Origin: a plasmid
Length of the DNA: 64,000 nt
Direction: 5' to 3' (one strand)
Sequence record: NZ_CP044080.1
Position 1 is the first letter of the stretch. Every line of letters starts with the position of its first letter. Under the pieces are notes generated by a model. The model was not told where the DNA came from and made no database searches. It saw only the letters and a program-made list of their open reading frames with translations. Shown one piece after another: positions 1,619-35,422 of this stretch. Position numbers and translations under genes: made by a program.

Positions 1619-4600
1619 TCATTCGGCCGGCTGGGGACCCGCCGCGCGGCCGCGCGCCCGGCTGAACAGGCCCAGCACAAAGACGAAGAACACCGGCACG
1701 AAGAAGATCGCCAGAACGGTGGCCGCGACCATGCCGCCGATGACCCCGGTGCCGATGGCGTTCTGGCTGGCGGCCGAGGGACCGGTGGCAATGGCCAGCG
1801 GCACCACGCCCAGCGTGAAGGCCAGCGAAGTCATCAGGATCGGGCGGAAGCGCAGCTTCGCGGCCGTCACCGCCGCCTCGATCAGGCTTTGGCCCTGTTC
1901 GCGCAGGTCCTTGGCGAATTCGACGATCAGGATGGCGTTCTTGGCCGACAGCCCAATGATCGCGATCAGCCCCACCTTGAAGTAGATGTCGTTCGGCATG
2001 TCGCGCAGCAGGACGGCGACCACGCAGCCTAGGACGCCCAACGGCACCACCAGCATCACCGACAAGGGGATCGACCAGCTTTCGTAAAGCCCCGACAGCA
2101 GCAGGAAGACGAACAGGATGCTCATGGCATAAAGCAGCGTCGCCTGCGACCCGGCCTGGATCTCCTCGAGGGACTGGCCGGTCCATTCATAGCCGAAGCC
2201 CTGCGGCAGCTGCTCGGCCAGGCGCTCCATCTCGGCCATGGCGGCCCCGGAGCTGTAGCCCGGCGCGGCGTTGCCGGCGATGCGGATCGACGGATAGCCG
2301 TTATAGCCCACCACCTGCGACGGCCCCTGTTCCCAGGTCACGCTGGCAAAGGACGAAAAGGGCACCATGCCGCCGTTCGTGTTGCGCACGGTCAGGGCCA
2401 GGATGTCCTCGGTGCTCATGCGGGCATTGTCGTCGGCCTGGACCATGACGCGCTGCATCTTGCCGGCGTTGGGGAAGTCGTTGACATAGGCCGAGCCCAG
2501 GTACTGCGAGATCGTGGCCGAGATGTCGGCGAAGGTCACGCCGAAGGCATTGGCCTTTTCCCGGTCGATGGTGACGAAGACCTGCGCGGCCGAAGGCAGC
2601 CCCTCGATCCGCAGGCCGGTGACGATGCCGCCCTTCTGGGCCTCGGCCATGATCTGCCCTGCGGCGGCCAGCAGCGCCTCTTGCCCCTGCCCGCCGCGGT
2701 CCTGCAGGCGGAAGCTGAAGCCCCCCGTGGTGCCGAAGCCGGGGATCGGCGGCGGGGACAGCGCGAAGGCCTGCGCGTCCTGATAGCCGAAAAGCTGCAT
2801 GTTCGCCGCCATCGCGATGTCCTCGGCGCTGCGCTCGCGCTCGCCCCAGTCCTTGAAGGTGGTGAAGATCAGCCCCGCGTTCGGCCCCTGCCCCGAAAAG
2901 CTGAAGCCCCGGATCGAGACGGTGTTTTCCACCTCGGGCATGGCTGCATACATCTCGGTCGCGGCAGCCAGCACCTGGTCGGTGCGGTTCGAGCTGGCGG
3001 CAGGCGGCGTCTGCACGTCCGTGATGATGAAGCCCTGGTCCTCGTTCGGCAGGAAGCTGGTGGGCAGGCGCAGGAAGCCGAAGGCCGTGGCCCCGACCAG
3101 CACCAGATAGAACGCCATCATCACCAGCCGCCGCCGCGTCACCAACGACACGGACTGGCCATAGCGCGCGGTCAGGCGGTCGAAGTTGCGGTTGAACCAG
3201 CCAAAGAAGCCGCGCCGTTCGTGATGGCCCTTGATCGGCTTGAGGAAGGTCGCGCAGAGCGCCGGGGTCAGCGTCAGCGCCAGGAAGGCCGAGAACAGGA
3301 TCGCCGTGACCATGGTCAGCGCGAACTGGCGATAGATGATCCCGGACGAGCCCGGGAAGAACGCCATCGGCACGAACACCGCCGCCAGCACCAGCGTGAT
3401 GCCGACGATGGCGCCGGAAATCTGTCCCATGGCCTTTTGCGTGGCTTCCTTGGGCGGCAGCCCTTCGGTCGCCATGATGCGCTCGACGTTCTCGATCACC
3501 ACGATGGCGTCATCGACCAGGATGCCGATGGCCAGCACCATGGCGAACATGGTCAGCACGTTGATCGAGAACCCCGCCACCAGCATGACGGCGACGGTGC
3601 CGGCCAGCGCGATGGGCACCACGATGGTCGGAATGATCGTATAGCGGAAGTTCTGCAGGAACAGGAACATCACCGCAAAGACCAGCACCATCGCCTCGAC
3701 CAGGGTGTGCAGCACCTTTTCAATCGAGGCCTCGACGAAGGGCGTGGTGTCGTAGGGGATCTGGTAGCTCACACCCTGCGGAAAGAACTGGGACAGTTCC
3801 TCCATCTTGGCATGCACCGCCTCGGAGGTGTTCAGCGCGTTGCCGGTGGTCGACAGCTGGATGCCCATCGCCGCCGCCGGCTTGCCGTTGATGCGCGAGC
3901 CGAAGCTGTAGGTTTCGGCCCCGATCTCGATGCGGGCCACGTCGCGCAGCAGGACGGCCGATCCGTCCGGGTTGGCGCGCAGCACGATCTTGCCGAACTC
4001 CTCGGGGTCGGAAAGCTGTCCCTTGATCAGCACGTTCGCGGTCAGTTGCTGGCCCACGGGGTTCGGGTCCGCGCCGACCTTGCCGGCGGACACCTGGGCG
4101 TTCTGCGCCCGCACCGCCGCCACCACATCGGCGCTGGACAGGTTCAGGCCGGTCATCTTGGCCGGGTCGATCCAGATGCGCAACGCCCGTTCGGGGGCAA
4201 AGACCTGCGCCCGGCCCACGCCCTCGATCCGGCGGATTTCGCCCGCGACGTTGCGGTTGATGTAATCCCCCAGCGCGATGTCGTTCAGCGACCCGTCGTC
4301 CGAGGTCAGCGCGACCATCATCAGAAAGCCCGAACCGGCCTCCTCGACCAGCACGCCCTGGTCCACCACGCTTTGCGGCAGCAGCGGTTCGACCCGCGCG
4401 ACGGCGTTCTGCACATCGACCTGGGCGCGCGCGACGTCGGTTCCGGGCTCGAAGGTCGCGGTGATCGACATGGCGCCGGAACTGTCCGAGACGGATTCGT
4501 AATAGGCGAGCCCCTCGACACCGTTCAGCTCATCCTCGATGGGCTGGGCGACGGACTGGTTGATCTCGCCCGGCGCGGCGCCGGTGTAGCTGGTCGAGAT

Positions 4601-4732
4601 GGTGATCTGCGGCCAGGCGACCTGCGGATACTGCGCCACCGGAATGCTGGGCAGCGAGATCAGCCCCGCAATGACGATGAAGATCGAGATCACCCAGGCC
4701 AGGACCGGGCGGGTGATGAAGAATTGTGCCAT
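1619..4732 (-). CDS. RND multidrug efflux permease, AcrB/MexB family (HAE1)
   Basis: 1037 aa. N-terminus MAQFFITRPVLAWVISIFIVIAGLISLPSIPVAQYPQVAWPQITIST is canonical AcrB. There are 12 predicted TM segments and two large periplasmic loops. It sits 3 bp downstream of the membrane fusion protein gene. Confidence 0.93.
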   Translation of the reverse strand: MAQFFITRPVLAWVISIFIVIAGLISLPSIPVAQYPQVAWPQITISTSYTGAAPGEINQSVAQPIEDELNGVEGLAYYESVSDSSGAMSITATFEPGTDVARAQVDVQNAVARVEPLLPQSVVDQGVLVEEAGSGFLMMVALTSDDGSLNDIALGDYINRNVAGEIRRIEGVGRAQVFAPERALRIWIDPAKMTGLNLSSADVVAAVRAQNAQVSAGKVGADPNPVGQQLTANVLIKGQLSDPEEFGKIVLRANPDGSAVLLRDVARIEIGAETYSFGSRINGKPAAAMGIQLSTTGNALNTSEAVHAKMEELSQFFPQGVSYQIPYDTTPFVEASIEKVLHTLVEAMVLVFAVMFLFLQNFRYTIIPTIVVPIALAGTVAVMLVAGFSINVLTMFAMVLAIGILVDDAIVVIENVERIMATEGLPPKEATQKAMGQISGAIVGITLVLAAVFVPMAFFPGSSGIIYRQFALTMVTAILFSAFLALTLTPALCATFLKPIKGHHERRGFFGWFNRNFDRLTARYGQSVSLVTRRRLVMMAFYLVLVGATAFGFLRLPTSFLPNEDQGFIITDVQTPPAASSNRTDQVLAAATEMYAAMPEVENTVSIRGFSFSGQGPNAGLIFTTFKDWGERERSAEDIAMAANMQLFGYQDAQAFALSPPPIPGFGTTGGFSFRLQDRGGQGQEALLAAAGQIMAEAQKGGIVTGLRIEGLPSAAQVFVTIDREKANAFGVTFADISATISQYLGSAYVNDFPNAGKMQRVMVQADDNARMSTEDILALTVRNTNGGMVPFSSFASVTWEQGPSQVVGYNGYPSIRIAGNAAPGYSSGAAMAEMERLAEQLPQGFGYEWTGQSLEEIQAGSQATLLYAMSILFVFLLLSGLYESWSIPLSVMLVVPLGVLGCVVAVLLRDMPNDIYFKVGLIAIIGLSAKNAILIVEFAKDLREQGQSLIEAAVTAAKLRFRPILMTSLAFTLGVVPLAIATGPSAASQNAIGTGVIGGMVAATVLAIFFVPVFFVFVLGLFSRARGRAAGPQPAE

Positions 4733-4735
4733 GTT

Positions 4736-5911
4736 TTAGCCCCGCGCTTCCTGCACCGCCGGGGCGGTCTCGGCCTCGGCCTTCTCGCCGGCCGCCTCGA
4801 CGGGCTGGGGCACCACCTTGGCGTCGGGGTAAAGCTTCTGCGCGCCGGCGACGACGACCTTGTCGCCCGGCTCGAGGCCGCTTTCGACCAGCCAGCGGTT
4901 GCCGGTGGTCTGGCCCAGCGTCACGTCGCGGCGCTCGACCGTGTCGGCATCCTTCAGCGCATAGACATAGGCCTGGCCCGACTGGTCGCGCTGCACCGCC
5001 ATTTGCGGGATGGTCAGGGCGTTTTCGCGCACCGCCTGTTCGACGCGGGCGCGAACGTAAAGCCCGGGCAGCAACACGTCGTCGGGGTTCGGGAATTCCG
5101 CCCGCAGCGTGATCTGCCCGGTCGTGCTGTCGACGCTGGCTTCCGAGAACAGCAGCCGGCCCGGATGGGGATATTCGCTGCCGTCGTCGAAGATCAACTG
5201 GACCCGCGCCTCGTTCTCGCTGGCCATCACCAGACGGCCGGCGTCGCGCGCCCGGCGCAGCGCGAACAGTTCCGAAGCCGATTGCGTCACGTCCACATAG
5301 ACCGGATCCAGTTGCTGGATGGTCGCCATCACGTCGGACTGGGCATTGACCAGCGCCCCCTCGGTCACCAGGGCGCGGCCGACCACGCCCGAGATCGGCG
5401 CGGTGACGTCGGTATAGCCCAGGTTCAACTCGGCCTCTTGCAGGGCGGCGCGGGCGATGGCCACGTCCGCCTCGGCCTGGGCCAGGGTGGTGGTGGCGTT
5501 TTCCAGATCGACGCCCGCGGTCACGCGGCGTTCGCGCAGCGCTTCGGCCCGGGCCATCTGGTCCCTGGCGTTGTCGCGCGTGGCCTCGGCCCGGGCGAGC
5601 GTGGCCTGGGCGCTGGTGACGCGGACCGCAAAGGGCGCCGGGTCGATCTTGTAAAGAACCGCGCCTTCCTCGATGCGGCTGCCCTGTTCGAAGACGCGGC
5701 TGACCACGATGCCGCCCACGCGCGGACGCACCTCGGCGGTGCGGGTGGCGGCGACCCGGCCCGGCAGTTCGTTCACGATGGGCAGCGCCTCGGGGGTCAT
5801 GGTCTGGACGCTGACCACGGGCGGGGGAAGCTCTTGCGCCAGGGCCGGGGGCGCCAGCAGGAAAAGGGCGGCCAGCCAGGCGATGCGGCCTGGAAATCTA
5901 TCGGAATGCAT
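4736..5911 (-). CDS. RND efflux membrane fusion protein (AcrA/MexA family)
   Basis: 391 aa with a signal peptide. Biotinyl/lipoyl-like and beta-barrel MFP motifs are present (VSVQTMTPEALPIVNELPGRVAATRTAEVRPRVGGIV). Immediately upstream of the AcrB-type gene. Confidence 0.88.
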   Translation of the reverse strand: MHSDRFPGRIAWLAALFLLAPPALAQELPPPVVSVQTMTPEALPIVNELPGRVAATRTAEVRPRVGGIVVSRVFEQGSRIEEGAVLYKIDPAPFAVRVTSAQATLARAEATRDNARDQMARAEALRERRVTAGVDLENATTTLAQAEADVAIARAALQEAELNLGYTDVTAPISGVVGRALVTEGALVNAQSDVMATIQQLDPVYVDVTQSASELFALRRARDAGRLVMASENEARVQLIFDDGSEYPHPGRLLFSEASVDSTTGQITLRAEFPNPDDVLLPGLYVRARVEQAVRENALTIPQMAVQRDQSGQAYVYALKDADTVERRDVTLGQTTGNRWLVESGLEPGDKVVVAGAQKLYPDAKVVPQPVEAAGEKAEAETAPAVQEARG

Positions 5912-5921
5912 GGTCTGTCTT

Positions 5922-6506
5922 TCAGTCTGAGGAGGGCTTTTCGGTCAGGTCGGCGCCGGGATCGCGTTCCGCGAGCGCCATCAGGTCATCCAGGATTTCG
6001 TTGCGGGTCACCTCGTCGAAGCGGTGAAAGCCGAAACATTCGACGAACATCATGCCGTGCAGCGTCAGCAGGACGCGCAGCATCTGGCGCGGCTCGGCGG
6101 CCTCGGCGGCGATGCGCCTGGCGTCGGCGGACAGGGCCTGCTGCATGATCTCGCGGCATTCGGCATTCTCGCCCATGCTGGCGCTGATCAGCATCGTGAT
6201 GGCGATGTCGTCGTCGGTGGGCGCGGTGCGGAATTCGTCGATCAGAGCCCGCAGGAAGGCGTTGGATTGGCCCTGGCGGCGGTTCAGCGCGTCCTCGACC
6301 CGGTCGTGGAACTGCGCGATCTGCGAGCGCGTGAATTCGGCCAGCAGGCCGGCCTTGCCCTGGCAGTCATAAACCACGCTGGACTTGCTGACGCCCGCCT
6401 CCTTGGCGACGGCGTCGATGGACAGGCCGCTGACGCCGGCAAGGCGGGCGACCGCGTCGACGGCCCGCATCAGTTCGTCGCGATCGATGCTGCGCTTGCG
6501 TCCCAC
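5922..6506 (-). CDS. TetR/AcrR-family transcriptional repressor
   Basis: The N-terminal HTH (LSIDAVAKEAGVSKSSVVYDCQGKAGLL) is a TetR signature. It is the first gene of the efflux operon and on the same strand. Confidence 0.8.
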   Translation of the reverse strand: MGRKRSIDRDELMRAVDAVARLAGVSGLSIDAVAKEAGVSKSSVVYDCQGKAGLLAEFTRSQIAQFHDRVEDALNRRQGQSNAFLRALIDEFRTAPTDDDIAITMLISASMGENAECREIMQQALSADARRIAAEAAEPRQMLRVLLTLHGMMFVECFGFHRFDEVTRNEILDDLMALAERDPGADLTEKPSSD

Positions 6507-6595: not shown

Positions 6596-7327
6596 ATGCG
6601 TCACAGTTCCCTCGCAAGGGGTCAGGGGGAAGGCGTGCAGGACTGGCTGGACGAAAAGCTGCCGATCAGCCGCAAGAACGCGGCCGAGGTCGTGTTCGAG
6701 GACCTGCGCCGTGCCATCCTGTCGGGCCGCATTCCCGTGGGCAGCCGCCTGCCGTCCGAGGAAAAGCTCGGCCGCAGCTACGGCGTCAGCCGCCCCATCA
6801 TCCGCGAGGCGATGCGGTCGCTGCAGACGCTGGGCCTGACCCGCGCGCGGTCGGGCAGCGGCAGCTTTGTCATCTCGGACCGGCAGCAGGCGGACCTGGC
6901 CTTCGGCGACGTGACCGCGCGCGACCTGATCGAGGCACGCCCCCATATCGAGATTCCCGCCGCCGGCCTTGCCGCGCTGCGCCGCACCCCGGAACAGCTT
7001 TCCCGCCTGCTTGCGCTGTGCGACCAGATGGAGCGGCAGGTCGCCAGCCTGACCTGGGTCGGGCTCGATTCCGAGTTCCACGGGCTGATCGCCCAGGCGG
7101 GGCAGAACGCCCTGTTCGCCCGGATCGTCGCCGAATCGCGCGATGCGCTGCAAAAGCAGTCCGAACTGGTGAACATGATGGCCGACCGCCGCATGGCCTC
7201 GAACGCCGAGCATCGCCTGATCGCCGCCGCCATCGCCGACGGGGACGAAGCCGCGGCCCAGGACGCGATGCAGCGCCACCTGGACCGCGTGGCCCGGGCG
7301 GTCGCGGGCATCACCGGCGGGGCCTGA
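6596..7327 (+). CDS. GntR-family transcriptional regulator (FadR/FCD subfamily)
   Basis: The N-terminal winged HTH (VVFEDLRRAILSGRIPVGSRLPSEEKLGRSYGVSRPIIREAMRSL) is followed by an all-helical FCD-like C-terminus. It is divergent from the TetR gene. Confidence 0.8.
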   Translation: MRHSSLARGQGEGVQDWLDEKLPISRKNAAEVVFEDLRRAILSGRIPVGSRLPSEEKLGRSYGVSRPIIREAMRSLQTLGLTRARSGSGSFVISDRQQADLAFGDVTARDLIEARPHIEIPAAGLAALRRTPEQLSRLLALCDQMERQVASLTWVGLDSEFHGLIAQAGQNALFARIVAESRDALQKQSELVNMMADRRMASNAEHRLIAAAIADGDEAAAQDAMQRHLDRVARAVAGITGGA

Positions 7328-7530
7328 GCCCTGAGGCCCCGGCCCGACCTCTCGGGCATGTGAGACGCGCCGGACTTTCAACTTCCGCCCATTCCCCGCA
7401 TTCTGCCAGGCTCTTAACCGATTATCCCCCGAGCGTTGGACGTCGGGTGAACGAATTTGTTAACTTGCGGCGGCCCGCCGTCCCCGGACATTAGGGCCCC
7501 TGACCACCACGCCCGATTCGAAGGAAACCC

Positions 7531-8943
7531 ATGCTAGAGCGCCTGAAGGCCATGTTCCGGTCGGACGATGTGATCTCGACCCTGTCGGTTTTCCCCGAGA
7601 TCGACGAGGAAAAGATCCAGCGCGAGCTGGCGCTTGAATCCCAGGGCCGCGACCGGGGGGCCCGCAACCAGCCCGAGCCTTCCGCGCAGGAGCCCGACCA
7701 TATCGAGACCGCGATCATCACCCGGATCGAGGCGCTGCGCCGCACCGGGCTGGAGAACTACGAACAGTATCGCCGCGTCTACAACGAACGCCTGGCCCGC
7801 GCGGGCGACGCCAAGAAAGAGGTCGAGATCGTCGCGGGCCGCGCGCGCAACGAATTCGGCGCCTCGGTCCAGGGATGGAAGACGACGATGACGCCGACCA
7901 TCGAGCGGCTGAACGAAACCTATACCTATCGCCGCCATTTCCGCGACCGGCACCGGCTGATCCGCCCCGCCCGCCAGTTCGAGGGCTGGGTCAAGTTCGC
8001 CGCGCTGGCGGTCATCTACATCGTCATCGAATCGGCGATGAACAGCTTCATGTTCTCGCGCGGGAACGAATCCGGGCTGCTGGGCGGGCTGCTGACCGCC
8101 TTCATCTTTTCGGCGCTGAACGTTCTGGTCAGCATCCTGATGGGCTATTTCGCGCGATATGTGAACCACACCAACCTGCTGAAAAAGCTGTTCGGCCTGC
8201 TGGTGATCCTGGCCTGGATCGGGTTCGCGGTCGCGCTGAACCTGATGATTGCCCATTTCCGCGACCTGATCGACGCCGGCGCGACATGGGAGGCCGCGTT
8301 GCGCCAGGCGGTCCCGAACCTGACCGCCGGCCCCGTGGCGCTGACCGGCATGGACAGCTGGATCCTGGTGGGGATCGGCGGCTTCATCTCGACCCTCGCC
8401 TTTCTCAAGGGCTGGACCGCCGAGGACCCGTTCCCCGGCTATTCCCAAGTCGAAGGCGAATTGGCCCGCGCCCGCCGCCGGCACGAGATCGACATGACCC
8501 GCGCGCTGGACGAGCTGACCGACCGCCGCGACGAAGCGATCGAGGAGCTGCGCGACGCCGATCGCCAGGTCCGCGACGGCATCACCGAGGCCATCGATGC
8601 GCTGTTCGGCCAAAGTGCCCTGAACGCGCATCTGGAAACCTTCCTGGAACAGTGTGACCTGAAGTTGGCGCATCTGCTGGCGGTCTATCGCGACGCGAAC
8701 CGCAATGCCCGGACCGAACCTGCGCCCCCCAGCTTTGCCCGCGTCCACCGCTTTGCCGCCTTCACCCCCGCCCGGATCGAGGACGGGCGCAAGACCAATG
8801 CCGAGGCCGAGGCCGCCAAGGTCACCGAGACCGTCGATGCCGCCATCGCCGACATCTTTGCGCAGTTCGAAAACGCCCGCCGCGAGTTTCGCCTGCCCGA
8901 AGAAATCCAGCGCGGCGACCACCTGGCGGCGGGGCGGGCCTGA
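7531..8943 (+). CDS. Hypothetical polytopic membrane protein with coiled coils (member 1 of a MotAB-like four-gene cluster)
   Basis: 470 aa. A strong RBS (AAGGAAA) lies 6 nt upstream. A ~150-aa cytoplasmic N-terminal coiled-coil region is followed by four hydrophobic helices (VKFAALAVIYIVIESAMNSFMF / GLLGGLLTAFIFSALNVLVSILMGYF / LFGLLVILAWIGFAVALNLMIAHF / WILVGIGGFISTLAFLKGW), then a ~190-aa charged coiled-coil C-terminal domain. No catalytic motif is recognisable. Confidence 0.7.
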   Translation: MLERLKAMFRSDDVISTLSVFPEIDEEKIQRELALESQGRDRGARNQPEPSAQEPDHIETAIITRIEALRRTGLENYEQYRRVYNERLARAGDAKKEVEIVAGRARNEFGASVQGWKTTMTPTIERLNETYTYRRHFRDRHRLIRPARQFEGWVKFAALAVIYIVIESAMNSFMFSRGNESGLLGGLLTAFIFSALNVLVSILMGYFARYVNHTNLLKKLFGLLVILAWIGFAVALNLMIAHFRDLIDAGATWEAALRQAVPNLTAGPVALTGMDSWILVGIGGFISTLAFLKGWTAEDPFPGYSQVEGELARARRRHEIDMTRALDELTDRRDEAIEELRDADRQVRDGITEAIDALFGQSALNAHLETFLEQCDLKLAHLLAVYRDANRNARTEPAPPSFARVHRFAAFTPARIEDGRKTNAEAEAAKVTETVDAAIADIFAQFENARREFRLPEEIQRGDHLAAGRA

Positions 8944-9776
8944 TGGCGGCGCGGTCCAGACGCCGCCGCCACAGCCGCGGCCGGGGCCATGGCGGCGGCC
9001 TCAAGACCGCGGGCATCGTGATCCTGGCCGTGCTGCTGTCGGCCGGCATGGGCGCCGCCGCCTGGTGGCACAGCCGCCAGCAGCGCGCCGCGGCCATCGA
9101 CCAGACCACGCTTTGCCCCACGGCCACCGGCCCCGTCGGCATGACGGCGATCCTGCTGGACCTGACCGACGCCCTGTCGCCCGCGCAGAAATCCCAGCTT
9201 CTGGGCTATCTGGAACAAGAGATCGACGATGCGCCGCAGGGAACCCAGTTTACCCTGGGGGTGGTCAGCGCCGACCCGGACCAATGGGGCGCGACGCCGC
9301 CGCTCTGCAAGCCGCAGGACGTCAGCACCGCCAGCGCCCTGACCCAGAACCCGGGCCTGATCGCAAAGCGCTATCGCGACCGCTTCCTGCAGCCCCTGCA
9401 GGACAACATCGCCCGGATGACGGCGGCCAGCGGCGCCAAGCAGTCCCCCATCATGGAATCCCTGCAGGCGCTGATCGCGGACACGCCGGGCTTTGTCACC
9501 TATGACGGGCCGCGCCGGGTCCTGCTGGTGTCGGACCTGCTGCAACACAGCGACGCGCTCAGCTTCTATCGCGGGAACGACTGGCAAAGCTTCGTGAAAT
9601 CCCCCGCCTATCAGCGGCTGGGGGCGACGCTCGGCGATGCCGAGATCCGCATCTTCCAAGTGCCGCGCCCGCTGGAGGGCGTCGACGACCCCGCCGTGCT
9701 GGAGGATTTCTGGGCGCGCTATTTCGACGTCCAGGGCGCGCATCTGCCGGTGCTGAAACGCCTGGGGGACCTTTAG
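8943..9776 (+). CDS. Hypothetical single-pass membrane/periplasmic protein (member 2 of the cluster)
   Basis: 277 aa. The start overlaps the upstream stop (ATGA). A basic N-terminus is followed by one TM helix (TAGIVILAVLLSAGMGAAAWW) and a ~230-aa domain with alternating beta/alpha character (TAILLDLTDALSP…FTLGVVSAD…VLLVSDLL), possibly vWA-like. No match to a known family was recognised by eye. Confidence 0.6.
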   Translation: MAARSRRRRHSRGRGHGGGLKTAGIVILAVLLSAGMGAAAWWHSRQQRAAAIDQTTLCPTATGPVGMTAILLDLTDALSPAQKSQLLGYLEQEIDDAPQGTQFTLGVVSADPDQWGATPPLCKPQDVSTASALTQNPGLIAKRYRDRFLQPLQDNIARMTAASGAKQSPIMESLQALIADTPGFVTYDGPRRVLLVSDLLQHSDALSFYRGNDWQSFVKSPAYQRLGATLGDAEIRIFQVPRPLEGVDDPAVLEDFWARYFDVQGAHLPVLKRLGDL

Positions 9777-10802
9777 GTGGCGCGCGGCGATCCCGACCGG
9801 CTGCATGGCCGGGGCCCCCGGGCGATGCTGGACAGCCTGCCGCTGGCCCTGGCCTTTCTGGTGGGCACCATCGGCGGCGTGGCGCTGAAACTGGCCGAGG
9901 CGCCGGCGCTGCTGACCGCGGGCTTTGCCGCGGCCGTGCTGGTCGCCTATGCGCTGTTCAGCTATGCCGCGACCCGGTTGCGGCTGGACACGGAAACCAT
10001 CGGCGACAACTGCTATTACCTCGGCTTCCTGTTCACGCTGACCAGCCTGGCCGTGACGCTGTATTTCGTGGTCGAGGCCGCGCCGGAGACGCGCGCCGAC
10101 CTGATCCCGCAGGTGATCTCGGGCTTCGGGGTGGCGCTATCGTCCACCATCGTGGGGGTGTTCCTGCGGGTGCTGATGATGCAGCTGCGCGTCGATCTGG
10201 ACCTGCGCGAACGCCGCACGAGGATCGAGCTGGACGAGGCCGCCCGGCGCTTCCGGTCCGAACTGGGCGTCAGCCTGGGCCGGGTCAAGAACTTCTCGAC
10301 CGAAAGCCTGCAACACGCCTCCGAGCGCGAGGACAGGATGCGCGAGGCGATGGACCGGCTGATGGCCCAGATGCAGGCCGAACTGCTGAAATCGGCCGCC
10401 GACTTCGGCCCGGCGCTGCGCGACGCCATGCGCGCCCAGACCGATCAGGTCATGGCCGACGTGACCGAGGCGGTGCGCGAAAGCTCGACCGCCGCCTGCG
10501 AGGCGATCCGCCAGGCCATGACCGAACTGGCGCAGGTCGCGCAGGCCTTCAGCCGCGACCAGGCCGGGGCGGCGCAGGCCGTGGCGCAAAGCGTGGACAG
10601 CCTGAAAGCCAGCGCCGAGGCCCTGGCCCTGGGCACGGAACAAAGCCTTGCCCGGCTGAACGCCGCCGCGACCGGCGGGGCGGACTGGGCCGAAAGCCTC
10701 GGCGCCCGGATCGAGGCCGAGACCGAGGCTCTGGGCGCCGCCCTGTCGAACGCCGCCCGCCGCCTGGACCAGGTCGCGCCCCAAGGCTCGGGCGATGCCT
10801 AG
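9777..10802 (+). CDS. MotA/TolQ/ExbB-like proton-channel protein with a C-terminal coiled-coil tail (member 3; ZorA-like architecture)
   Basis: 341 aa with a GTG start directly after the upstream stop; an alternative ATG lies at 9825. Four N-terminal TM helices are present. The last two carry ExbB/MotA-type signatures: YLGFLFTLTSLAVTLYF resembles ExbB YIGLLGTVWGIM, and ISGFGVALSSTIVGVFLRVL resembles ExbB/MotA AL-TT--G-V-AIP. A ~200-aa Ala/Glu/Arg/Gln-rich coiled-coil tail follows. Confidence 0.65.
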   Translation: MARGDPDRLHGRGPRAMLDSLPLALAFLVGTIGGVALKLAEAPALLTAGFAAAVLVAYALFSYAATRLRLDTETIGDNCYYLGFLFTLTSLAVTLYFVVEAAPETRADLIPQVISGFGVALSSTIVGVFLRVLMMQLRVDLDLRERRTRIELDEAARRFRSELGVSLGRVKNFSTESLQHASEREDRMREAMDRLMAQMQAELLKSAADFGPALRDAMRAQTDQVMADVTEAVRESSTAACEAIRQAMTELAQVAQAFSRDQAGAAQAVAQSVDSLKASAEALALGTEQSLARLNAAATGGADWAESLGARIEAETEALGAALSNAARRLDQVAPQGSGDA

Positions 10803-11835
10803 GATCGCGCCCCGCCCCGGCGGCAGCCGCGACTACAAGCGCGGCGCGATCATGGGCCTGACCGTGGCCGAGGCCTTCATCCTGCTGGCCTTCTGCCTGC
10901 TTCTGCTGTTCACCTGGTGGCAGGTGGAAACCGAGAAACGCTCGATCACCGTGGCCGAACGCATCGGCGAACTGACCGAGCAGCAAAAGCAGGATCTGGT
11001 CGCCGGCCTGTCCGACGGCACCTTCGACCTGGCCCGCACGCTGCGCGAGGCGGGCATCGTCGGCGGAGAACGGGCCTTGGCCGAAACCAGCCAATACAGC
11101 CGCTTCATGCGCGAGGAAGATCTGAAGCGCCTGATGCAGGCCACGGTGGAGCTGTCCCCCGACACCCGCCTGACCCTGGCCGACGCGGTCGAGGTCACGC
11201 CCGAAGCCGAGCTGCGCGATGCCTTGCGGAAACTGGCCGCGCGCGAGGACAGCGTCGAACAGGCCAGCCGCCGCCTGGCCGAGGCGGCCGCGACCCAGGA
11301 CCGCGCCGTCGCCATGCTGGACCGCGCCCTTGGCCAGGACATCCGCGCGGCCGGCGGGCAGATCGACGGGAACGGCACGATCACCCTGCCCCAGAACGTC
11401 CTGTTCGACCCCGGCAGCGACCGCATTCGCAACCTGCCCTTCCTGCGCGACTTCTGCACCGCCTGGATCGGCACGCTGCGCGATTCGGGACTGGACATCG
11501 CGAACCTCAAGATCGAGGGCCATGCCTCGAGCGAGGGGCGGCCGGGCGAGACGCCCGAGCAGGCCTATCTGTCGAACCTGGACCTGTCGCAGCGCCGTGC
11601 GCAGAACGCGCTGACGACCTGCCTGAACGGCATCCGCGACCCCCGGACGCTGGCCTGGGCGCGCGAACACCTGTCGGCGGCGGGCTATTCCTCGGCCCGG
11701 CCGGTGGTGCAGGCCGACGGCAGCGAGGACCGCGAAAAATCCCGCCGCGTGATGTTTGCCATGGACGTGGACCGCGAGGCGCTGATCGACGGCATCCGCG
11801 AGGACCTGACAAGCACCCCGCCCGCCTTGCCCTAA
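10795..11835 (+). CDS. MotB/OmpA-like protein (member 4): N-terminal TM plug helix plus C-terminal OmpA-type peptidoglycan-binding domain
   Basis: 346 aa, overlapping the upstream gene by 8 nt. The TM segment TVAEAFILLAFCLLLLF aligns to MotB TYADLMTLLLAFFVVLW with Glu in place of the conserved Asp. The C-terminal domain (ITLPQNVLFDPGSDRIRNLPFLRDFCTAWIGTLRDSG…IEGHASSEG…NLDLSQRRAQNALTTCL…ARPVVQADGSEDREKSRRVMF) is OmpA/MotB-like. Confidence 0.75.
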   Translation: MPRIAPRPGGSRDYKRGAIMGLTVAEAFILLAFCLLLLFTWWQVETEKRSITVAERIGELTEQQKQDLVAGLSDGTFDLARTLREAGIVGGERALAETSQYSRFMREEDLKRLMQATVELSPDTRLTLADAVEVTPEAELRDALRKLAAREDSVEQASRRLAEAAATQDRAVAMLDRALGQDIRAAGGQIDGNGTITLPQNVLFDPGSDRIRNLPFLRDFCTAWIGTLRDSGLDIANLKIEGHASSEGRPGETPEQAYLSNLDLSQRRAQNALTTCLNGIRDPRTLAWAREHLSAAGYSSARPVVQADGSEDREKSRRVMFAMDVDREALIDGIREDLTSTPPALP

Positions 11836-29752: not shown

Positions 29753-30964
29753 ATGTCCTTTGCATCTGCATATGAACGCTATTTCGTCGGTCTGGTGAAC
29801 CAGGCCCGTCAGGCCGAGGGGCACTCGGCTTTGCGCATCGACAAAAGGCTGAACGACTCGTCCGAGGGCCACAGCCGCTGGATGCTGCAGGCCGACGTCT
29901 TCTCGCATACCGGCCAGGGTGGCTCATCCTCGCGCGAGCGGATCGAGGCGGCGGGCTTTCCGCTGGTCGGCGACTGGCACACCGCCGAAAACATCGCCTA
30001 TGTCGGCATCTCGGGCGAGGGTGACCTGAAGGACGAGATCCGGGCCCTGCACCGGATGCTGCTGGAAAGCCCCGGCCACTATGCCAATATCATGGGCGAC
30101 AGCGCCTATATCGGCATCGGTCTTGAAGTTGGCTATCTTCGTGTCAACGGCCAGAACCATCGGGTCCTGATGGCGACGCAGAACTTCGGCGACACCGATG
30201 GCCAGTTGCGCATCGATACCGGGACCTTCACCAAGGTCCCGGACCCCGGTTCCAGCCTGACTATGTCCACCCGGGCCCAATGGCTGCAGGACTTTGACGG
30301 CAATGTCTTTGTAACCCCTGGCCCATCGCAGGCGACGGTCCGGAACGACGACTATCGCCTGACGGCACGCAATGACGTGGCCTGGGCGGCCGCGGGCAAT
30401 GACTGGATGGATGGAGGGGCGGGAAATGATCGCCTGGCAGGCGGGGCGGGAAATGACCGCCTGATCGGCGGGCTGGGCTTTGACACCCTTCAGGGCGGCG
30501 CCGGGAAAGACACGCTGCAGGGCGATTATGGCAATGACAACCTGGGCGGAAACGAAGGGAACGACCAGCTGCGGGGCGGTGCGGGCGAGGACCTTCTGGC
30601 GGGCCATGCCGGAAACGACTGGCTGATCGGCAATGAAGGGCGCGACACGCTTTATGGCGGTGACGGCAATGACACCCTGCAGGGCGGGCCGGGTAACGAC
30701 ATGCTGATCGGAGGACCGGGCGCGGACGTGTTCATCTTTCGCGCGGGCCAAGGCGCCGACACGATCAGCGGCTATCAGCGCGGTGTCGACCGCCTGCTGA
30801 TCGGCGATGCGCTGCTGGATGACAACCCTGCTGCATTCATCCGGGACCACATGTCAAAAACCGCCACAGGGGTGGTCCTTGACTTTGGCAACGCCGGGCG
30901 CATCGTCGTCAACGGGCCGAACCTGACAGTGGCGGGCGTGGCGGACGACATCTTCTCGATCTGA
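29753..30964 (+). CDS. Secreted protein with an N-terminal CAP/SCP/PR-1-like domain and C-terminal RTX (hemolysin-type) calcium-binding repeats; probable type I secretion substrate
   Basis: 403 aa. The CAP-like region is VGLVNQARQAEGHSALRIDKRLNDSSEGHSRWM…HTGQGGSSSRERIEAAGF…AENIAY…GHYANIMGDSAYIGIGL. It is followed by at least 10 GGxGxDxL nonapeptide repeats (GGAGNDRLAGGAGNDRLIGGLGFDTLQGGAGKDTLQGDYGNDNLGGNEGNDQL…). The region has lower GC. Confidence 0.8.
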   Translation: MSFASAYERYFVGLVNQARQAEGHSALRIDKRLNDSSEGHSRWMLQADVFSHTGQGGSSSRERIEAAGFPLVGDWHTAENIAYVGISGEGDLKDEIRALHRMLLESPGHYANIMGDSAYIGIGLEVGYLRVNGQNHRVLMATQNFGDTDGQLRIDTGTFTKVPDPGSSLTMSTRAQWLQDFDGNVFVTPGPSQATVRNDDYRLTARNDVAWAAAGNDWMDGGAGNDRLAGGAGNDRLIGGLGFDTLQGGAGKDTLQGDYGNDNLGGNEGNDQLRGGAGEDLLAGHAGNDWLIGNEGRDTLYGGDGNDTLQGGPGNDMLIGGPGADVFIFRAGQGADTISGYQRGVDRLLIGDALLDDNPAAFIRDHMSKTATGVVLDFGNAGRIVVNGPNLTVAGVADDIFSI

Positions 30965-31204
30965 GGCGCGACCGCCAGAGCCTGGCCGGGAGCTGGAGGA
31001 CCGAACCTGGATGTTTCGACTGCCCTCGGCCGCACCAGACCAAGGCGCGCGCGGTGTGTTTCTGACCGACCCCCGGCACGAGCCGTTGCGCTGTTGATTT
31101 CCACCGAGACGTGATCCGGTTCGGGCGATAATTTCCATTGAGAGTTGACCCATGTGACCCTTCCCCCAACGCGGCGAGCGACGGGGGGCCAAGGAGTGAT
31201 CCAC

Positions 31205-31319
31205 ATGGGACTTTTGAATGTCATCCGCCGAATGGCGCTGCGAGAGAAGCTTCCGATCCGCGAGATTGCTCGCCGGACTGGTCTGTCGCGCAACACCATC
31301 AAGAAGTATCTTAACGCTG
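31205..31319 (+). pseudogene. IS21-family istA transposase N-terminal HTH fragment, cut at the left end of the IS3 element
   Basis: MGLLNVIRRMALREKLPIREIARRTGLSRNTIKKYLNA matches IS21 IstA N-termini. The frame runs directly into the IS3 inverted repeat. Confidence 0.55.
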
Positions 31320-31360
31320 TGAACTGCCCCGGGTTTACCGGAGAGTAGAGCACTCAAAGG

Positions 31361-31702
31361 ATGAGCCCTATGACGAAGCAAAGATTCACCCCCGCCTATC
31401 CGGCCGAACTGCGCGAACGCGGTGTTCGGCTTTTCCGCGAGAACCGCGGCGACTACGCCAGCGACAGTGCGGCCTACAAGGCGATCGCGCCGAAGCTTGG
31501 CTGCTCTCCCGACAGTCTGCGCGTCTGGTGCCAGCAGGCGGAGCGTGACCGCGGAGAGCGCGGCGGGCTGACGAGCGCGGAGAAGGACCGGATCAAGGAA
31601 CTGGAACGCGAGGTGCGGGAGCTTCGCACCGCCAATGAGATCCTGAAGAAGGCCAGCGCATATTTCGCTGCGGCGGAGCTCGACCGCCCGTTCCGCAAAT
31701 GA
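31361..31702 (+). CDS. IS3-family transposase OrfA (HTH/leucine-zipper)
   Basis: 113 aa. MTKQRFTPAYPAELRERGVRLF…KELEREVRELRTANEILKKASAYFAAAELDR is typical of IS3 OrfA. Confidence 0.88.
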   Translation: MSPMTKQRFTPAYPAELRERGVRLFRENRGDYASDSAAYKAIAPKLGCSPDSLRVWCQQAERDRGERGGLTSAEKDRIKELEREVRELRTANEILKKASAYFAAAELDRPFRK

Positions 31703-32604
31703 TCGCGTTTCTCGACGATCACCGTGGCGTCTTTGGTGTCGGGCCGATCTGCCGGGTTCTGGGGATCGCACCATCGACGTTCTACAGTTTCAAGGCTGTG
31801 GAGCGTGATCCCACCCTGGCATCGGATCGGGCCAGGCAGGACCAGAAGGACATGACTGCCATCAAGCAGATATTCGACGGCAGCAGAGGCCGATATGGCG
31901 CGCGTAAGGTTTGGCACCAGTTGCGCCGCGAAGGGTGCGACATCGCCCGTTGCACAGTGGAGCGGCTGATGAAGGTCATGGGGTTGCAAGGCGTTGTGCG
32001 CGGCAAGAAGGTCGTCACGACCAACCCCGATGCGGCCCAACCCTGTCCGGACGACAAGGTGAACCGGGTCTTCGTGGCAGACATGCCGAACCAGCTGTGG
32101 GTCAGCGATTTCACCTACGTCTCAAGTTGGCAGGGCATGGTTTATGTGGCCTTCGTGATCGACGTCTTCGCCCGCAAGATCGTCGGCTGGCGCGTCTCGA
32201 CTTCGATGACCACCGGTTTCGTCCTCGACGCTCTGAATCAGGCCATCTGCCAGCGCGCGCCGTCCGAGGCTGACAAGCTGATCCATCACAGCGACCGGGG
32301 CAGCCAATATCTCTCGATCCGATATACCGAGCGGCTGGCCGAGGCGGGCATCGACACCTCGGTCGGCAGCGTCGGTGATTCCTATGACAACGCTCTGGCT
32401 GAAAGCATCATCGGCCTGTTCAAGACCGAGGTCATCAAGTTCCTCGGCCCTTGGAAATCCGTGGGTCAAGTCGAGTGGGAAACCCTGAAGTGGGTCGACT
32501 GGTATAACAAGACGCGCCTGCACAGCGCCATCGGTTACGTCACACCGAACGAAGCAGAGGAGGAATTCTACACAAGCTTGAACGCCGCCGCAAAAGCAGC
32601 CTAA
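31699..32604 (+). CDS. IS3-family transposase OrfB (DDE integrase core, rve)
   Basis: 301 aa. Contains …LWVSDFTYVSSWQGMVYVAFVIDVFARKIVGWRV…HHSDRGSQYLS…DNALAESIIGLFKTE…. It is expressed by a -1 frameshift from orfA. Confidence 0.88.
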   Translation: MIAFLDDHRGVFGVGPICRVLGIAPSTFYSFKAVERDPTLASDRARQDQKDMTAIKQIFDGSRGRYGARKVWHQLRREGCDIARCTVERLMKVMGLQGVVRGKKVVTTNPDAAQPCPDDKVNRVFVADMPNQLWVSDFTYVSSWQGMVYVAFVIDVFARKIVGWRVSTSMTTGFVLDALNQAICQRAPSEADKLIHHSDRGSQYLSIRYTERLAEAGIDTSVGSVGDSYDNALAESIIGLFKTEVIKFLGPWKSVGQVEWETLKWVDWYNKTRLHSAIGYVTPNEAEEEFYTSLNAAAKAA

Positions 32605-32645
32605 TCATTGAACCAGAAACTCTCCGGTAAACCCGGGGCGGTTCA

Positions 32646-33508
32646 TGACCTCCGGGGCAATCAGCCGCCAGATCAAGGCCCTGGAAGCCGAGCTTGGCGT
32701 ACCGCTGTTCATCAGGACGGGGCGTGGCGTGCGCCCGACGCAGGCAGGAACCGAACTGTATGCGAGTGTAGCCGCCGGATTTTCCCGCATTGCGGATGTC
32801 GCGCGTGACATCAAGCGCGGGGATCGGTCCCGCAATGTCACGATCGCAACGACCGACACCACGGCCACCATGTGGCTGGTTCCGCGCATGCCCGAGTTCT
32901 GGCATCGTCACCCTGAAATCGTCATCAACCATCAGCTCGCCGAGAACAGCCGGTACTTTCGGCCCGAAGAGGTGGAGCTTCGCATTCGTCACGGCATGGG
33001 CGGCTGGATCAACGACGTCATGGAGCCGCTGTTCGACGATTGGCTCTATCCCGTCTGCAGTCCGGCACTCGCCAAGCGCCACGCCGGTGCGACGGTGGCC
33101 GATCTTCCCGACATGCCGCTTCTGGACATCGACTGGGTCGCGCCCGACTGGGTGACATGGGAGCAGGCGCTGCTGCAGGGCGGTGTGTCGTCCCGGTCGT
33201 TCGCCGCCCGCCGCCTGGGAAAATTCAGCCTTGCCATGCAGGCCGCCGCGGCGGACCAAGGTGTGGCGATCGGCTGGCACCGCATGATCACGCCCATGCT
33301 GGAACGGGGCGAGCTGGTCCGTCTGACCGAACTGGTCTTTCGCGCACCCGGAACCTATTATCTGACCTGGCATCGCGGGCGCGCGCTGTCCCCCGCCGCC
33401 GAATTGCTCCGGGAGTGGGTCCATGAGCAGGCGGAAGCGGAACGGGCGCGGCCTCTCCCTTGGCAATCCGTCGAAGGCGGTGATTTGCTTCCGACGGAGG
33501 GGGCGTGA
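32646..33508 (+). pseudogene. LysR-family transcriptional regulator lacking the first ~20-25 codons, truncated at the right end of the IS3 element
   Basis: The frame opens immediately after the IS3 right IR with …SGAISRQIKALEAELGVPLFIRTGRGVRPTQAG, the second half of a LysR HTH. A full LysR substrate-binding domain follows. Confidence 0.7.
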
Positions 33509-33719
33509 GCATGCGGACATTTGGCAAGCCTTGCAGTTTGTTCGGTCTGGATAGTGGACGCTGACCCTGCAACCCGCATTCCGCCCGGGCCTCCGCAACG
33601 CGCGTTGAACGACTGACTTTTCGGCTCAATGACCTGTTTGGGGCAGCCTTCGCCAGGGACGCCTGACAGGCCGCTGAAGAAGTCAGCTCTCGACCTGTTA
33701 ATGTGGAACATGCTTCTCC

Positions 33720-34068
33720 CATCTTTGGACAGGTTTCTGGGTGATTTAAGCTACTGCCTGCGCCTACTGATCGGTTTCGATGCTATTGAAGTAGACCATG
33801 GCGGGCGGCTGCCCGCCATGGGCGGTATGAGGCCGCCGGTGGTTGTAGAATGTGATCCAGTGGCCGATGGCTGCCTTGCCTGTAACCCTGTTTCCCATGC
33901 GTGAAGGTAAACGCATTCATACTTCAGGGACCGCCAGAGGCGCTCGATGAAGACGTTGTCGATGCAGCGCCCTTTTCCGTCCATCGAGATCCGGGTGCCG
34001 ACGCGCTTCAGCCTGTCCGTCCATGCAAGGGACGTGAACTGGGCGGATTCAACCGGTCGTCGCAACAC
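33720..34068 (-). pseudogene. IS3-family transposase OrfB C-terminal fragment (frameshifted), the distal part of an element split by the IS30 insertion
   Basis: FTSLAWTDRLKRVGTRISMDGKGRCIDNVFIERLWRSLKYECVYLHAWETGLQAR is the rve-domain end. The terminal …RPHTAHGGQPPAMVYFNSIETDQ* lies in a different frame. Confidence 0.65.
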
Positions 34069-35407
34069 CTTTCATATCCTGTTTGAGCAGCCGGTCGAGA
34101 GCCTCTGCCGGTGTTTGCCACGCCAGCGTTTTCCGGGGGCGCGTATTCAGCGCATGGGCTACGGCGCTCAGCTCTTCGGCACCATGTTGGCTGAGATCCG
34201 TGCCCTTTGGGGAGTATTGGCGGAGCAGGGCATTGGTGTTCTCGTTGCTGCCGCGTTGCCAGGGGCTCTGAGGGTCACAGAAATAGATCTCGAGACCAGT
34301 ATCCATCCGAAGCTGCACATGTTGGGCCATCTCGGCGCCTTGGTCCCAAGTCAACGAGCGACGTAGCTGGGCAGGCAGGCCGCTGATCGTCCCTGCGATG
34401 GCATCCCGAACGGCCTCAGCGCCGTGACCGGCAAGGGCTGGCCCGTTCTTGACGGACTTGCCTGTCCCGTGCCCTTCCATGCGCGGCAAGTGCAGGAGCA
34501 TGGTGAAGCGGGTCGTGCGTTCGACCAGCGTGCCGATCGCCGAACTGCCAAGGCCGGGAATGAGGTCACCTTCCCAATGACCAGGAATAGCCCTGTCACC
34601 GATTTCAGCTGGGCGGTCGCTGATCATCAACGCGTCGGCAATGAAGGCCTTGCCGCGGTTCCGGGCACGTTCTCGTGGGAACCTGAGGGCACGGCCGGAC
34701 CTCAGGCAGGCTGAGAGCTCTCGCCTCAGTCCGCCGCGCCCCTGAATGTATAGCGCCTGATAAATGGCTTCGTGGCTGATGCGCATGGTCAGATCCTCGG
34801 GGAAGTCCAGCTTCAAGCGCTGTGAGATCTGCTCCGGGCTCCAGGCCGATGACCAGCGTCGGCTTTGCCGGTGAACGGCTCGCCGTCCTTTCCATACCAC
34901 GACAGGCCCATCGAAGGCGATGCCGTCCGGCGTGGTAATGAGGCCGGACAGCCGATCCTGCACGTCGTCGCGCAGGGCGGGGTTGAGCGCGAGCTTGCTG
35001 ATTTTTGGACGTCTGGCCGCACGATCCGCATGCCACTGTGCGGCAATGGCCCGATAGTCGAACTCTCCGCCGCGCGTTGCCGAGTTGCGGCTGATCTCAC
35101 GCGGGATCGTGCTGGCGGATCGGCTAAGCTTGCGCGCGATTGCCCACACGCCGGTGCCCCGAGCGCATTCGAGGGCTATCTCCTCGCGTTCGGAGAACGA
35201 AAGGCTACGGCGCTTCGGCACAGGAGCCCATGGTGCAAGATGAGTGGGAGGCATTCCGCCAGAACTCCGAATCCATCGGGTTCCGACCGGAGCTGAAACA
35301 CCTGCTGCAACAGCGGCTTCTTCGCTGGACAAGCCTGCCGCTATTTCTCGCCAGAACCGGCACAGATGTTCACGCTGCCAGACTGGCGGCCGACCTGGCG
35401 AGGACAA
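34049..35407 (-). CDS. IS30-family transposase; its insertion splits an IS3-family orfB
   Basis: 452-aa ORF; the true start may be internal. Contains an N-terminal HTH (…LSSEEAAVAAGVSAPVGTRWI…), a second HTH (…VWAIARKLSRSASTIPREISRN…) and a DDE core (…IPGHWEGDLIPG…RTTRFTMLLHLP…LTWDQGAEMAQH…). The IS ends were not delimited. Confidence 0.8.
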   Translation of the reverse strand: MSSPGRPPVWQREHLCRFWREIAAGLSSEEAAVAAGVSAPVGTRWIRSSGGMPPTHLAPWAPVPKRRSLSFSEREEIALECARGTGVWAIARKLSRSASTIPREISRNSATRGGEFDYRAIAAQWHADRAARRPKISKLALNPALRDDVQDRLSGLITTPDGIAFDGPVVVWKGRRAVHRQSRRWSSAWSPEQISQRLKLDFPEDLTMRISHEAIYQALYIQGRGGLRRELSACLRSGRALRFPRERARNRGKAFIADALMISDRPAEIGDRAIPGHWEGDLIPGLGSSAIGTLVERTTRFTMLLHLPRMEGHGTGKSVKNGPALAGHGAEAVRDAIAGTISGLPAQLRRSLTWDQGAEMAQHVQLRMDTGLEIYFCDPQSPWQRGSNENTNALLRQYSPKGTDLSQHGAEELSAVAHALNTRPRKTLAWQTPAEALDRLLKQDMKGVATTG

Positions 35408-35422
35408 TTTGCGCCGCGTCGA

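Follow-up and report, generated by a model that had tools for sequence, protein, structure and literature searches.

A four-gene membrane cassette on a Paracoccus yeei plasmid

We analysed a 64,000-nucleotide (nt) stretch of the Paracoccus yeei plasmid record NZ_CP044080.1 (hereafter the window, in whose numbering coordinates are given) and focused on a cassette of four membrane-protein genes, g1 to g4, encoded on its plus strand. The open reading frame (ORF) list places g1 at 7531-8943 (470 amino acids (aa), ATG start), g2 at 8943-9776 (277 aa, ATG start, 1-nt overlap with the g1 stop), g3 at 9777-10802 (341 aa, GTG start, abutting g2) and g4 at 10795-11835 (346 aa, ATG start, 8-nt overlap with g3), exactly as in the initial annotation of this DNA, which had described four co-directional genes with overlapping or abutting ends. 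The membrane topologies that it had predicted for the four products also agreed with a hydropathy scan. In the upstream intergenic region (7328-7530), a Shine-Dalgarno-like GAAGGA (7520-7525) precedes the ATG of g1. A scan for sigma-70 consensus promoters upstream of g1 returned 0 sites, a result that is uninformative at 68% GC in an alphaproteobacterium, and the terminator scan was no more informative. The GC content of the cassette (0.68-0.69) is like that of its surroundings. Three P. yeei plasmids match the window at 97.6-98.6% identity, and in one of them, pYEE1 (98.6%), RefSeq calls the same four coding sequences with the same lengths, naming three of them hypothetical and one 'OmpA family protein'.

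The g3 product, the A subunit, consists of a membrane core with four transmembrane (TM) helices of the ZorA/MotA/ExbB type (aa 16-135; nt 9822-10181) and a 206-aa cytoplasmic helical tail that runs on from TM4 (aa 136-341; nt 10182-10799). Its predicted fold is that of the MotA/ExbB/ZorA membrane proteins, with TolQ, ExbB and MotA chains also among the fold matches, and the loop between TM2 and TM3 is only ~13 residues long. In the AlphaFold2 (AF2) model, TM4 extends into long helices spanning residues 107-209 and 217-333, which supports the coiled-coil character originally assigned to the tail. Across the family the tail varies from 133 to 465 aa (median ~273). PADLOC ZorA2 matched g3 at 1.5e-6 over TM4 and the start of the tail, and Pfam MotA_ExbB was reached weakly by 8 of 38 family members. 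A full-length g3 profile run against the PDB was discarded, since it was mainly the tail that drew matches, to apolipoproteins and coiled coils.

Two motifs are invariant in the g3 family, GDNxYYLGFxxTL in TM3 and FGxALxSTIxGxxxR in TM4, as are the ion-filter-like residues T87 (TM3) and S123/T124 (TM4). Their equivalents in Escherichia coli ZorA are the selectivity-filter residues Thr147 and Ser184 (PMC11946911). The invariant TM3 and TM4 residues of g3 lie where an ion pathway would be expected.

The g4 product, the B subunit, begins with a basic cytoplasmic N-terminus carrying a YxRG motif, followed by a single TM helix (aa 21-39), a periplasmic helical stalk of ~158 aa (aa ~40-198; nt 10912-11388) and an OmpA-like domain predicted to bind peptidoglycan (aa ~200-322; nt 11392-11760). 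The OmpA assignment made earlier was borne out by concordant matches to Pfam OmpA (E 1.3e-5, just under the gathering cutoff), to PADLOC ZorB2 and ZorB1 (5.4e-25 and 3.3e-24) and, in the PDB, to type II ZorB (8vvi_A, 2.8e-8), the best sequence match there, followed by MotB (1.9e-4) and an OmpA family protein (3.2e-4). The NCBIfam ZorB2 model also matched (1.6e-17), far below its equivalog cutoff. The N-terminal motif YxRGxxxGLTxAExxxLLxF is strictly conserved, with G17, G21, E26 and F33 invariant. Glu26 (codon 10870-10872) is the sole acidic residue in the TM helix and was invariant in 28 of 28 diverse aligned family members. It faces the essential Asp of C. sporogenes MotB in a phmmer alignment and shares its ordinal position with ZorB Asp26/Asp24, described as 'universally conserved' by Hu et al. 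(PMC11946911, PMC11890865); Glu26 may be functionally equivalent to the ZorB Asp. A g4 N-terminal profile found no match in the PDB, the query being too short and hydrophobic, and a homolog search with residues 1-200 retrieved only 20 close relatives, all without a nuclease.

The g2 product is a single-pass protein with a cytoplasmic N-terminus (TM aa 22-40, with eight Lys/Arg on its N-terminal side) and a periplasmic von Willebrand factor A (vWA) domain (aa ~55-277; nt ~9105-9773), which gives an identity to the large extracytoplasmic domain noted before. This domain has a Rossmann-like alpha/beta vWA fold and two invariant cysteines, C58 and C122. Its residues resembling a metal ion-dependent adhesion site (MIDAS) are incomplete: the family consensus reads D73-x-T75-D76-(A/P), S168 and D198 are invariant, and the second Ser is missing. 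No significant match was obtained for g2 in scans of Pfam, NCBIfam and PADLOC.

The g1 product is a polytopic inner-membrane protein in which four TM helices (aa 152-292) separate two soluble cytoplasmic domains, one of 151 aa at the N-terminus (aa 1-151) and one of 178 aa at the C-terminus (aa 293-470). E167, N197, N237, H242 and R244 are invariant in or beside the TM helices, and the motifs DPxPGY (299-304) and YRDANxxAR (386-394) are conserved in the C-terminal domain. Searches of Pfam, PADLOC, NCBIfam and the PDB revealed no relative of g1: when 53 family members were scanned with Pfam, the only matches were spurious ones to MFS and apolipoprotein models, and the g1 profile gave only coiled-coil noise against the PDB, in the form of weak matches to coiled-coil proteins. 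Neither search produced a channel or pore family. The idea that g1 is a diverged paralog of g3 was ruled out by an hhalign probability of 10%.

Conservation, nucleases and neighbourhoods of the family

Among 1.84 billion cluster representatives, g1 had relatives in 2,320 clusters (50% identity) at E<=1e-3 and in 1,636 at E<=1e-10, nearly all of them 450-520 aa long. The g1 family is thus a large one, and it has no annotation at all.

A scan with a degenerate pattern, covering 185,579 species with one genome each, yielded 164 confirmed g3 relatives, for which we fetched 80 loci. In essentially all of those not cut by a contig end, the same four families stood in the order g1-g2-g3-g4 and in the same orientation, far beyond what chance would give, which answers the concern raised at the outset that the genes might not be conserved together. 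The hosts of these ~80 loci span four bacterial classes and include Rhodobacterales, Rhodospirillales, Dongiaceae, Parvibaculum and Micavibrio, as well as Halomonas/Vreelandella, Halioglobus, Thiohalocapsa, Porticoccus, Arenicellales, one betaproteobacterium and one member of the Bdellovibrionales. Another 18 plasmids, from Rhizobium, Sinorhizobium, Microvirga and Tistrella, carry more distant copies (~30% identity in g1); the two copies that were inspected, on R. johnstonii 3841 pRL11 and in Microvirga ossetica, have the same four genes. Pairwise protein distances of the four genes were strongly correlated across 69 cassettes (r 0.59-0.92), indicating that they are inherited together. Public records annotate the cassette proteins as 'hypothetical protein' or 'OmpA family protein'. 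A search of plasmids for an empty site, with the flanks present and the cassette absent, returned no informative record.

Two genomes carry two divergent whole cassettes each (L046 and L057 in OZ241902.1; L045 and L068 in Albidovulum sp. bin36). In these pairs one cassette has a long, repeat-expanded g4 with an SNase domain (777 aa) and the other a short, nuclease-less g4. The paralogous cassettes may differ in specificity.

The g4 homologs range from ~290 to 777 aa in length. We surveyed nucleases in ~79 non-redundant loci, counting separate genes within 10 kb. An SNase domain (PF00565) was fused after the OmpA domain of g4 in 22 loci and a GmrSD_C/HNH domain (PF07510) in seven, both above the Pfam gathering cutoffs; a separate SNase gene was present in 14, in many cases right next to the cassette, upstream of g1 or downstream of g4, and no nuclease was detected in ~36 (~46%). 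Over half of the relatives thus have a nuclease fused to the periplasmic end of g4 or encoded nearby. In each of the 29 fusion proteins the only TM helix is at the N-terminus, which places the fused nuclease on the same side of the membrane as the peptidoglycan-binding domain. Most stand-alone SNases have a signal-peptide-like hydrophobic N-terminus and 7-9 Cys. Catalytic motifs are kept in most modules (DGDT and GID(A/T)PE in SNase; DxDH...N...N in HNH). An adjoining 'thermonuclease family protein' gene accompanies both the pRL11 and the Microvirga copies.

The nuclease state differed from that of the nearest relative in 23 of 69 cassettes, and such frequent exchange of effector modules is typical of defence systems. 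An SNase is present in all seven nearest relatives of the window cassette, fused to g4 in four (L005, L006, L008 and L012) and encoded by an adjacent gene in three (L007, L010 and L015). The window has none, which makes the P. yeei cassette a derivative that lacks the nuclease and is otherwise intact, with every family-invariant residue kept. The earlier statement that the system has no nuclease partner therefore stands for the 64 kb of the window and fails for the family. The existence of many nuclease-less cassettes implies that the four-gene core either has an output of its own or uses a nuclease encoded elsewhere.

The g4 stalk also varies, from 110 to 443 aa among homologs, growing by internal repeats of ~80 aa that reach three to four copies (for example, L046:11403-13733, L065:11410-13587 and L049:18945-20573). 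The span from inner membrane to wall anchor appears to have been tuned from one lineage to another. In 13 distant cassettes (L067, L069, L070, L072-L074, L076-L081 and L083), the g4 homologs keep the conserved N-terminus, TM helix and stalk but have, in place of the OmpA domain, an unrelated and likewise conserved C-terminal domain of 110-230 aa that has no Pfam match (for example, '...CWYNPETKKSEYIFDVALRDDGFVIRD...'). This domain may be a different wall- or envelope-binding module.

We then examined the genes around the relatives. Six annotated neighbourhoods contained IS110, IS66 and IS91 transposases, integrases and a resolvase, together with zeta/ParD, DarT-Macro, a UvrD-type helicase, TerB and dynamin-like GTPases, and an AAA_15/SMC-like ATPase. 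In a census of the two nearest ORFs on each side of ~37 loci, many transposase and integrase domains were found, as well as BrxL, HEC-05, PD-Lambda-1, type I and type II restriction enzymes, UzuA, MADS components, ThsB, ZacB and several PADLOC candidate systems (PDC). The flanks of the relatives give a clear defence-island signal, in raw census counts without a matched background.

Two relatives have arrangements of individual interest. On a Logan contig with a P. aestuarii g3 homolog (L085:16805-17542 and L085:12437-14476), g4 lacks a nuclease, and an SNase-domain gene lies ~4.4 kb downstream, past a UvrD-type helicase gene and followed by an AAA_15/SMC-like ATPase gene; this is a composite defence-island arrangement. 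In R. johnstonii 3841 (pRL11, 276240-295457), a PBP1A gene carried on the plasmid lies directly upstream of the cassette, which is adjoined by a convergent thermonuclease gene, with HipA/HTH and WGR/zincin genes nearby. Rich public transposon sequencing (Tn-seq) and transcriptome data exist for this strain.

Relation to known ion-driven motors

The best matches of g3 and g4, in structure as in sequence, are ZorA and ZorB, and the resemblance to Zorya extends to the architecture of both subunits. As in Zorya, the A subunit combines a MotA/ExbB/ZorA membrane fold with a last TM helix that extends into a long cytoplasmic helical tail, and the B subunit has one TM helix with an acidic residue (position ~24-26) and ends in an OmpA-type domain. 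The genes of the two subunits are likewise adjacent and overlapping, the context is that of defence islands, and a nuclease (ZorD or ZorE in Zorya) is associated.

The differences from Zorya are nevertheless substantial. Zorya types consist of a ZorAB core with ZorCD (type I), ZorE (type II) or ZorFG (type III) (PMC8565338, PMC11890865), whereas the cassette has the gene order X-Y-A-B and joins its A and B subunits with a 4-TM protein and a vWA protein of the periplasm. Neither g1 nor g2 matched PADLOC ZorC, ZorD, ZorE, ZorF or ZorG, which upholds the initial view that this is not canonical Zorya I or II. The proposed comparison with Pfam DUF3348 and DUF2894 also gave no match; these families turn out to be the type III partners ZorF and ZorG (PMC8565338, PMC11890865).

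E. coli ZorA has three TM helices, a Ca2+ site and a tail of ~500 aa and 70 nm (PMC11946911). The g3 product has four TM helices, and with only ~13 residues between TM2 and TM3 it lacks the torque-generating domain of MotA as well as ZorA's Ca2+ site and membrane-proximal cytoplasmic domain. Its 206-aa tail is, as had been noted, much shorter than that of ZorA. The B subunit has an invariant Glu where ZorB has its essential Asp, and a stalk of 110-443 aa separates the TM helix from the OmpA domain. Moreover, the nucleases of the relatives are periplasmic, whereas those of the ZorD/ZorE type are cytosolic. The cassette is therefore Zorya-like at its core and departs from Zorya in two features that define membership, the Asp and the type-defining partners.

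Other motors of this superfamily are less similar. Compared with MotAB/PomAB, the cassette lacks the TM2-TM3 torque-generating domain and flagellar genes, has a long tail and has Glu for Asp; NCBIfam MotB models scored g4 at 20-37 bits against cutoffs of 250-312 (36.8 against 300 for one model). Compared with TolQR and ExbBD, g3 has four TM helices rather than three, g4 has an OmpA-like domain, and there is neither a TolA/TonB-like partner nor a Tol or Ton context. No flagellar, Tol-Pal or TonB genes were found near the cassette in the window or in the neighbourhoods of its P. yeei relatives, as the initial annotation had stated; regulators and transporters are annotated there instead. GldLM is a 5:2-type motor, as predicted for the cassette, with a B-like subunit that forms a long periplasmic stalk, and it uses a protonatable Glu, GldL Glu49. 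However, that Glu is on the A-like subunit GldL, GldM lacks an OmpA domain, and no sequence or fold match to GldLM was obtained.

A parallel exists for g2. Inner-membrane-tethered vWA proteins encoded beside TolQ(R)-like motors were computationally proposed to be force transducers in a 2025 study in Molecular Biology and Evolution (PMC12204202). Like these, g2 is a single-pass protein with a cytoplasmic N-terminus and a periplasmic vWA domain, encoded beside a MotA/TolQ-type motor. However, its TM helix is not conserved in sequence and, in the family consensus, carries neither the SHLS/His motor-binding motif nor a TolR-like Asp; there is no long linker, proline-rich or disordered, the vWA domain beginning right after the TM helix; and here the motor itself includes a B subunit with an OmpA domain. 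Lacking the SHLS/His motif, the Asp and the long linker, g2 is an analogue of the force-transducer families and not a member.

The C-terminal modules of the g4 homologs resemble SNase (PF00565) and GmrSD_C/HNH (PF07510) nucleases at above-threshold scores and with most motifs kept. They differ from secreted or periplasmic thermonucleases of the SNase family in being fused to, or encoded beside, a wall-anchored motor subunit, and they are absent from the window copy. Searches of the available literature on Zorya-like or type IV systems, on periplasmic nuclease defence and on MotA combined with thermonuclease and vWA returned Zorya I-III only and no description of this cassette, which is previously undescribed.

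Proposed function and alternative explanations

We propose, with a probability of roughly 55%, that the cassette is a previously undescribed Zorya-like anti-phage or anti-mobile-DNA system built on a ZorAB-type ion-driven motor. The initial annotation had offered either a Zorya-like defence variant or a new envelope machine, and the data support that framing. That g3 and g4 form a ZorAB-type motor is very probable, and a role for the cassette in defence is fairly probable. The interception of DNA in the periplasm is a tentative mechanism, which we consider rather less likely to be right than wrong.

In Zorya, perturbation of the envelope by phage is thought to trigger wall engagement, ion flow, tail rotation and recruitment of cytosolic nucleases (PMC11946911). 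By homology, g3 and g4 would assemble into a 5:2 complex anchored to peptidoglycan through the stalk and OmpA domain of g4. Perturbation of the envelope by a phage or another DNA-delivery apparatus would lead g4 to engage peptidoglycan, and ions would then flow past Glu26, which would couple them to the motor. The ensuing rotation or change of conformation could be sensed or relayed in the periplasm by g2, a plausible sensor or adaptor, and on the cytoplasmic side by the g3 tail to g1, a plausible tail partner. As output, in what is the most economical interpretation, a Zorya-like sentinel would degrade DNA within the envelope: a wall-tethered periplasmic nuclease would attack incoming DNA locally, whether from phage, gene-transfer agents (GTAs), transformation or conjugation. 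For the window copy, the nuclease might be encoded elsewhere, or the core might have a nuclease-independent output such as a block of DNA entry or an ion leak through g1 or g3-g4. In its most specific form, the proposal is that of a first immune system in which a rotary ZorAB-type motor runs a peptidoglycan-tethered periplasmic nuclease and so stops invading phage, GTA or plasmid DNA in the envelope, short of the cytoplasm, with the vWA protein as sensor of the invading apparatus, coupling between g1 and the tail, and a Glu-based ion pathway; this we consider doubtful.

Several observations weigh against the proposal. The link to phage resistance is guilt by association only, through the genes flanking relatives, and the counts of those genes had no matched background. 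The window cassette itself has no mobile elements or defence genes close by and lies in metabolic surroundings, including an efflux pump and a sugar ABC transporter; no SNase or HNH homolog was found in the whole 64 kb; and a scan of IMG/VR viral contigs found no copy of the cassette. The nuclease is not a universal effector, as no nuclease lies within 10 kb in ~46% of relatives. A protein conduit normally encloses phage DNA on its way through the periplasm, which leaves the access of a periplasmic nuclease unexplained. The 5:2 stoichiometry comes from homology only, and the contacts of g1 and g2 with the motor are inferred. Finally, the sequence evidence for g3 is weak. A TM-only profile matched no MotA, ExbB or ZorA in the PDB, so that the fold assignment rests on structure prediction, and none of the Foldseek matches reached E<=1e-3.

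One alternative is a non-immune function, in which a machine driven by the proton-motive force would process or scavenge extracellular or periplasmic DNA, or maintain the architecture of the envelope, with the wall-anchored nuclease as a housekeeping enzyme. In the DNA-processing variant, it would serve nutrient acquisition or the control of natural transformation or of gene-transfer-agent DNA. The nuclease is indeed extracytoplasmic, where secreted SNase-type enzymes normally digest free DNA, and the window cassette lies in a metabolic context on a large, non-mobilizable replicon. Force transduction in non-immune roles has been proposed for inner-membrane-tethered vWA proteins encoded beside TolQ(R)-like motors (PMC12204202), and the R. 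johnstonii copy adjoins a PBP1A gene. However, the family is patchy and rare, with 164 confirmed matches among 185,579 species genomes. In addition, defence genes and transposases or integrases are enriched directly beside the cassette, nuclease modules are swapped or lost fast between close relatives, and the nearest solved relatives of both motor subunits are from Zorya and not from TolQR or ExbBD. On balance we regard a non-immune machine as unlikely.

A second alternative is abortive infection. In this model the core itself is the effector, the g3-g4 channel or a polar-lined g1 dissipates the membrane potential, and the nuclease is optional. It fits the ~46% of loci, including the window, that have no nuclease and yet keep the four core genes and their invariant residues, as well as the invariant polar and charged residues in or beside the TM helices of g1. 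Membrane depolarisation was also the original proposal for Zorya, as quoted in PMC8565338. Zorya I and II, however, showed no depolarisation, defence being direct or nuclease-mediated (PMC11946911, PMC11890865). As g1 matches no channel or pore family, and as the frequent tethering of nucleases to g4 would be left unexplained, this model seems rather improbable.

It is also conceivable that only the window copy has decayed, having lost its nuclease effector and its function, and that the family is still a defence system. The SNase of all seven nearest relatives is missing from the 64 kb of the window, and the flanks hold no mobile or defence genes. On the other hand, the four ORFs are intact and translationally coupled, with all family-invariant residues kept, and three independent P. 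yeei plasmids preserve the cassette at 97.6-98.6% identity. Cassettes without a nuclease turn up repeatedly, in many separate clades, and the chromosome, which lies outside the window, could encode the nuclease. We therefore consider a decaying remnant very unlikely. The reading of the genes as ordinary MotAB, TolQR or ExbBD orthologs with accessory genes is effectively refuted: the membrane fold is common to those families, TolQ, ExbB and MotA chains are among the fold matches and MotB models weakly match the OmpA part of g4, but scores fall far under every curated equivalog cutoff, a 13-residue loop takes the place of the MotA torque-generating domain in g3, TolR and ExbD have no OmpA domain, Glu replaces Asp in the B subunit, and no canonical flagellar, pal/tolB or TonB partners are nearby.

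Zorya is among the more widespread and mechanistically unusual defence systems, with three types recognised. If the Zorya-like defence proposal is correct, the cassette would represent a fourth ZorAB-like architecture, in which the A subunit is minimal, the partners are wholly different and Glu stands where Asp is 'universal'. For 5:2 motors, an ion pathway based on Glu would be a new chemistry, and above all the periplasmic-side nucleases would widen the known use of such motors in immunity. The long-standing question of whether bacteria attack foreign DNA while it crosses the envelope would become testable. The cassette would also give a first functional context to the large g1 family of hypothetical membrane proteins (~2,300 clusters at 50% identity) and to a family of anchored periplasmic vWA proteins, as well as to the many proteins that Rhodobacterales and Rhizobiales plasmids encode under the names 'OmpA family protein' and 'thermonuclease family protein'.

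The remaining neighbours of the cassette in the window and in its P. yeei relatives are an RND efflux operon, regulators of the TetR, GntR and DeoR families, and genes for sugar, amino-acid and ethanolamine functions. The RND operon (permease, periplasmic adaptor and TetR regulator), of ordinary type, lies directly upstream on the minus strand (1619-6506), and a GntR/FadR regulator gene (6596-7327, plus strand) sits directly before g1. Further downstream, the GC content falls to 0.62-0.63 at 30000-36000, compared with ~0.68 elsewhere. If pYEE1 is collinear with the window, an IS66 TnpB remnant and short hypothetical genes of that plasmid correspond to window positions of ~36-42 kb, just downstream of the low-GC stretch. 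This stretch may be a small island that was gained by horizontal transfer and has nothing to do with the cassette.

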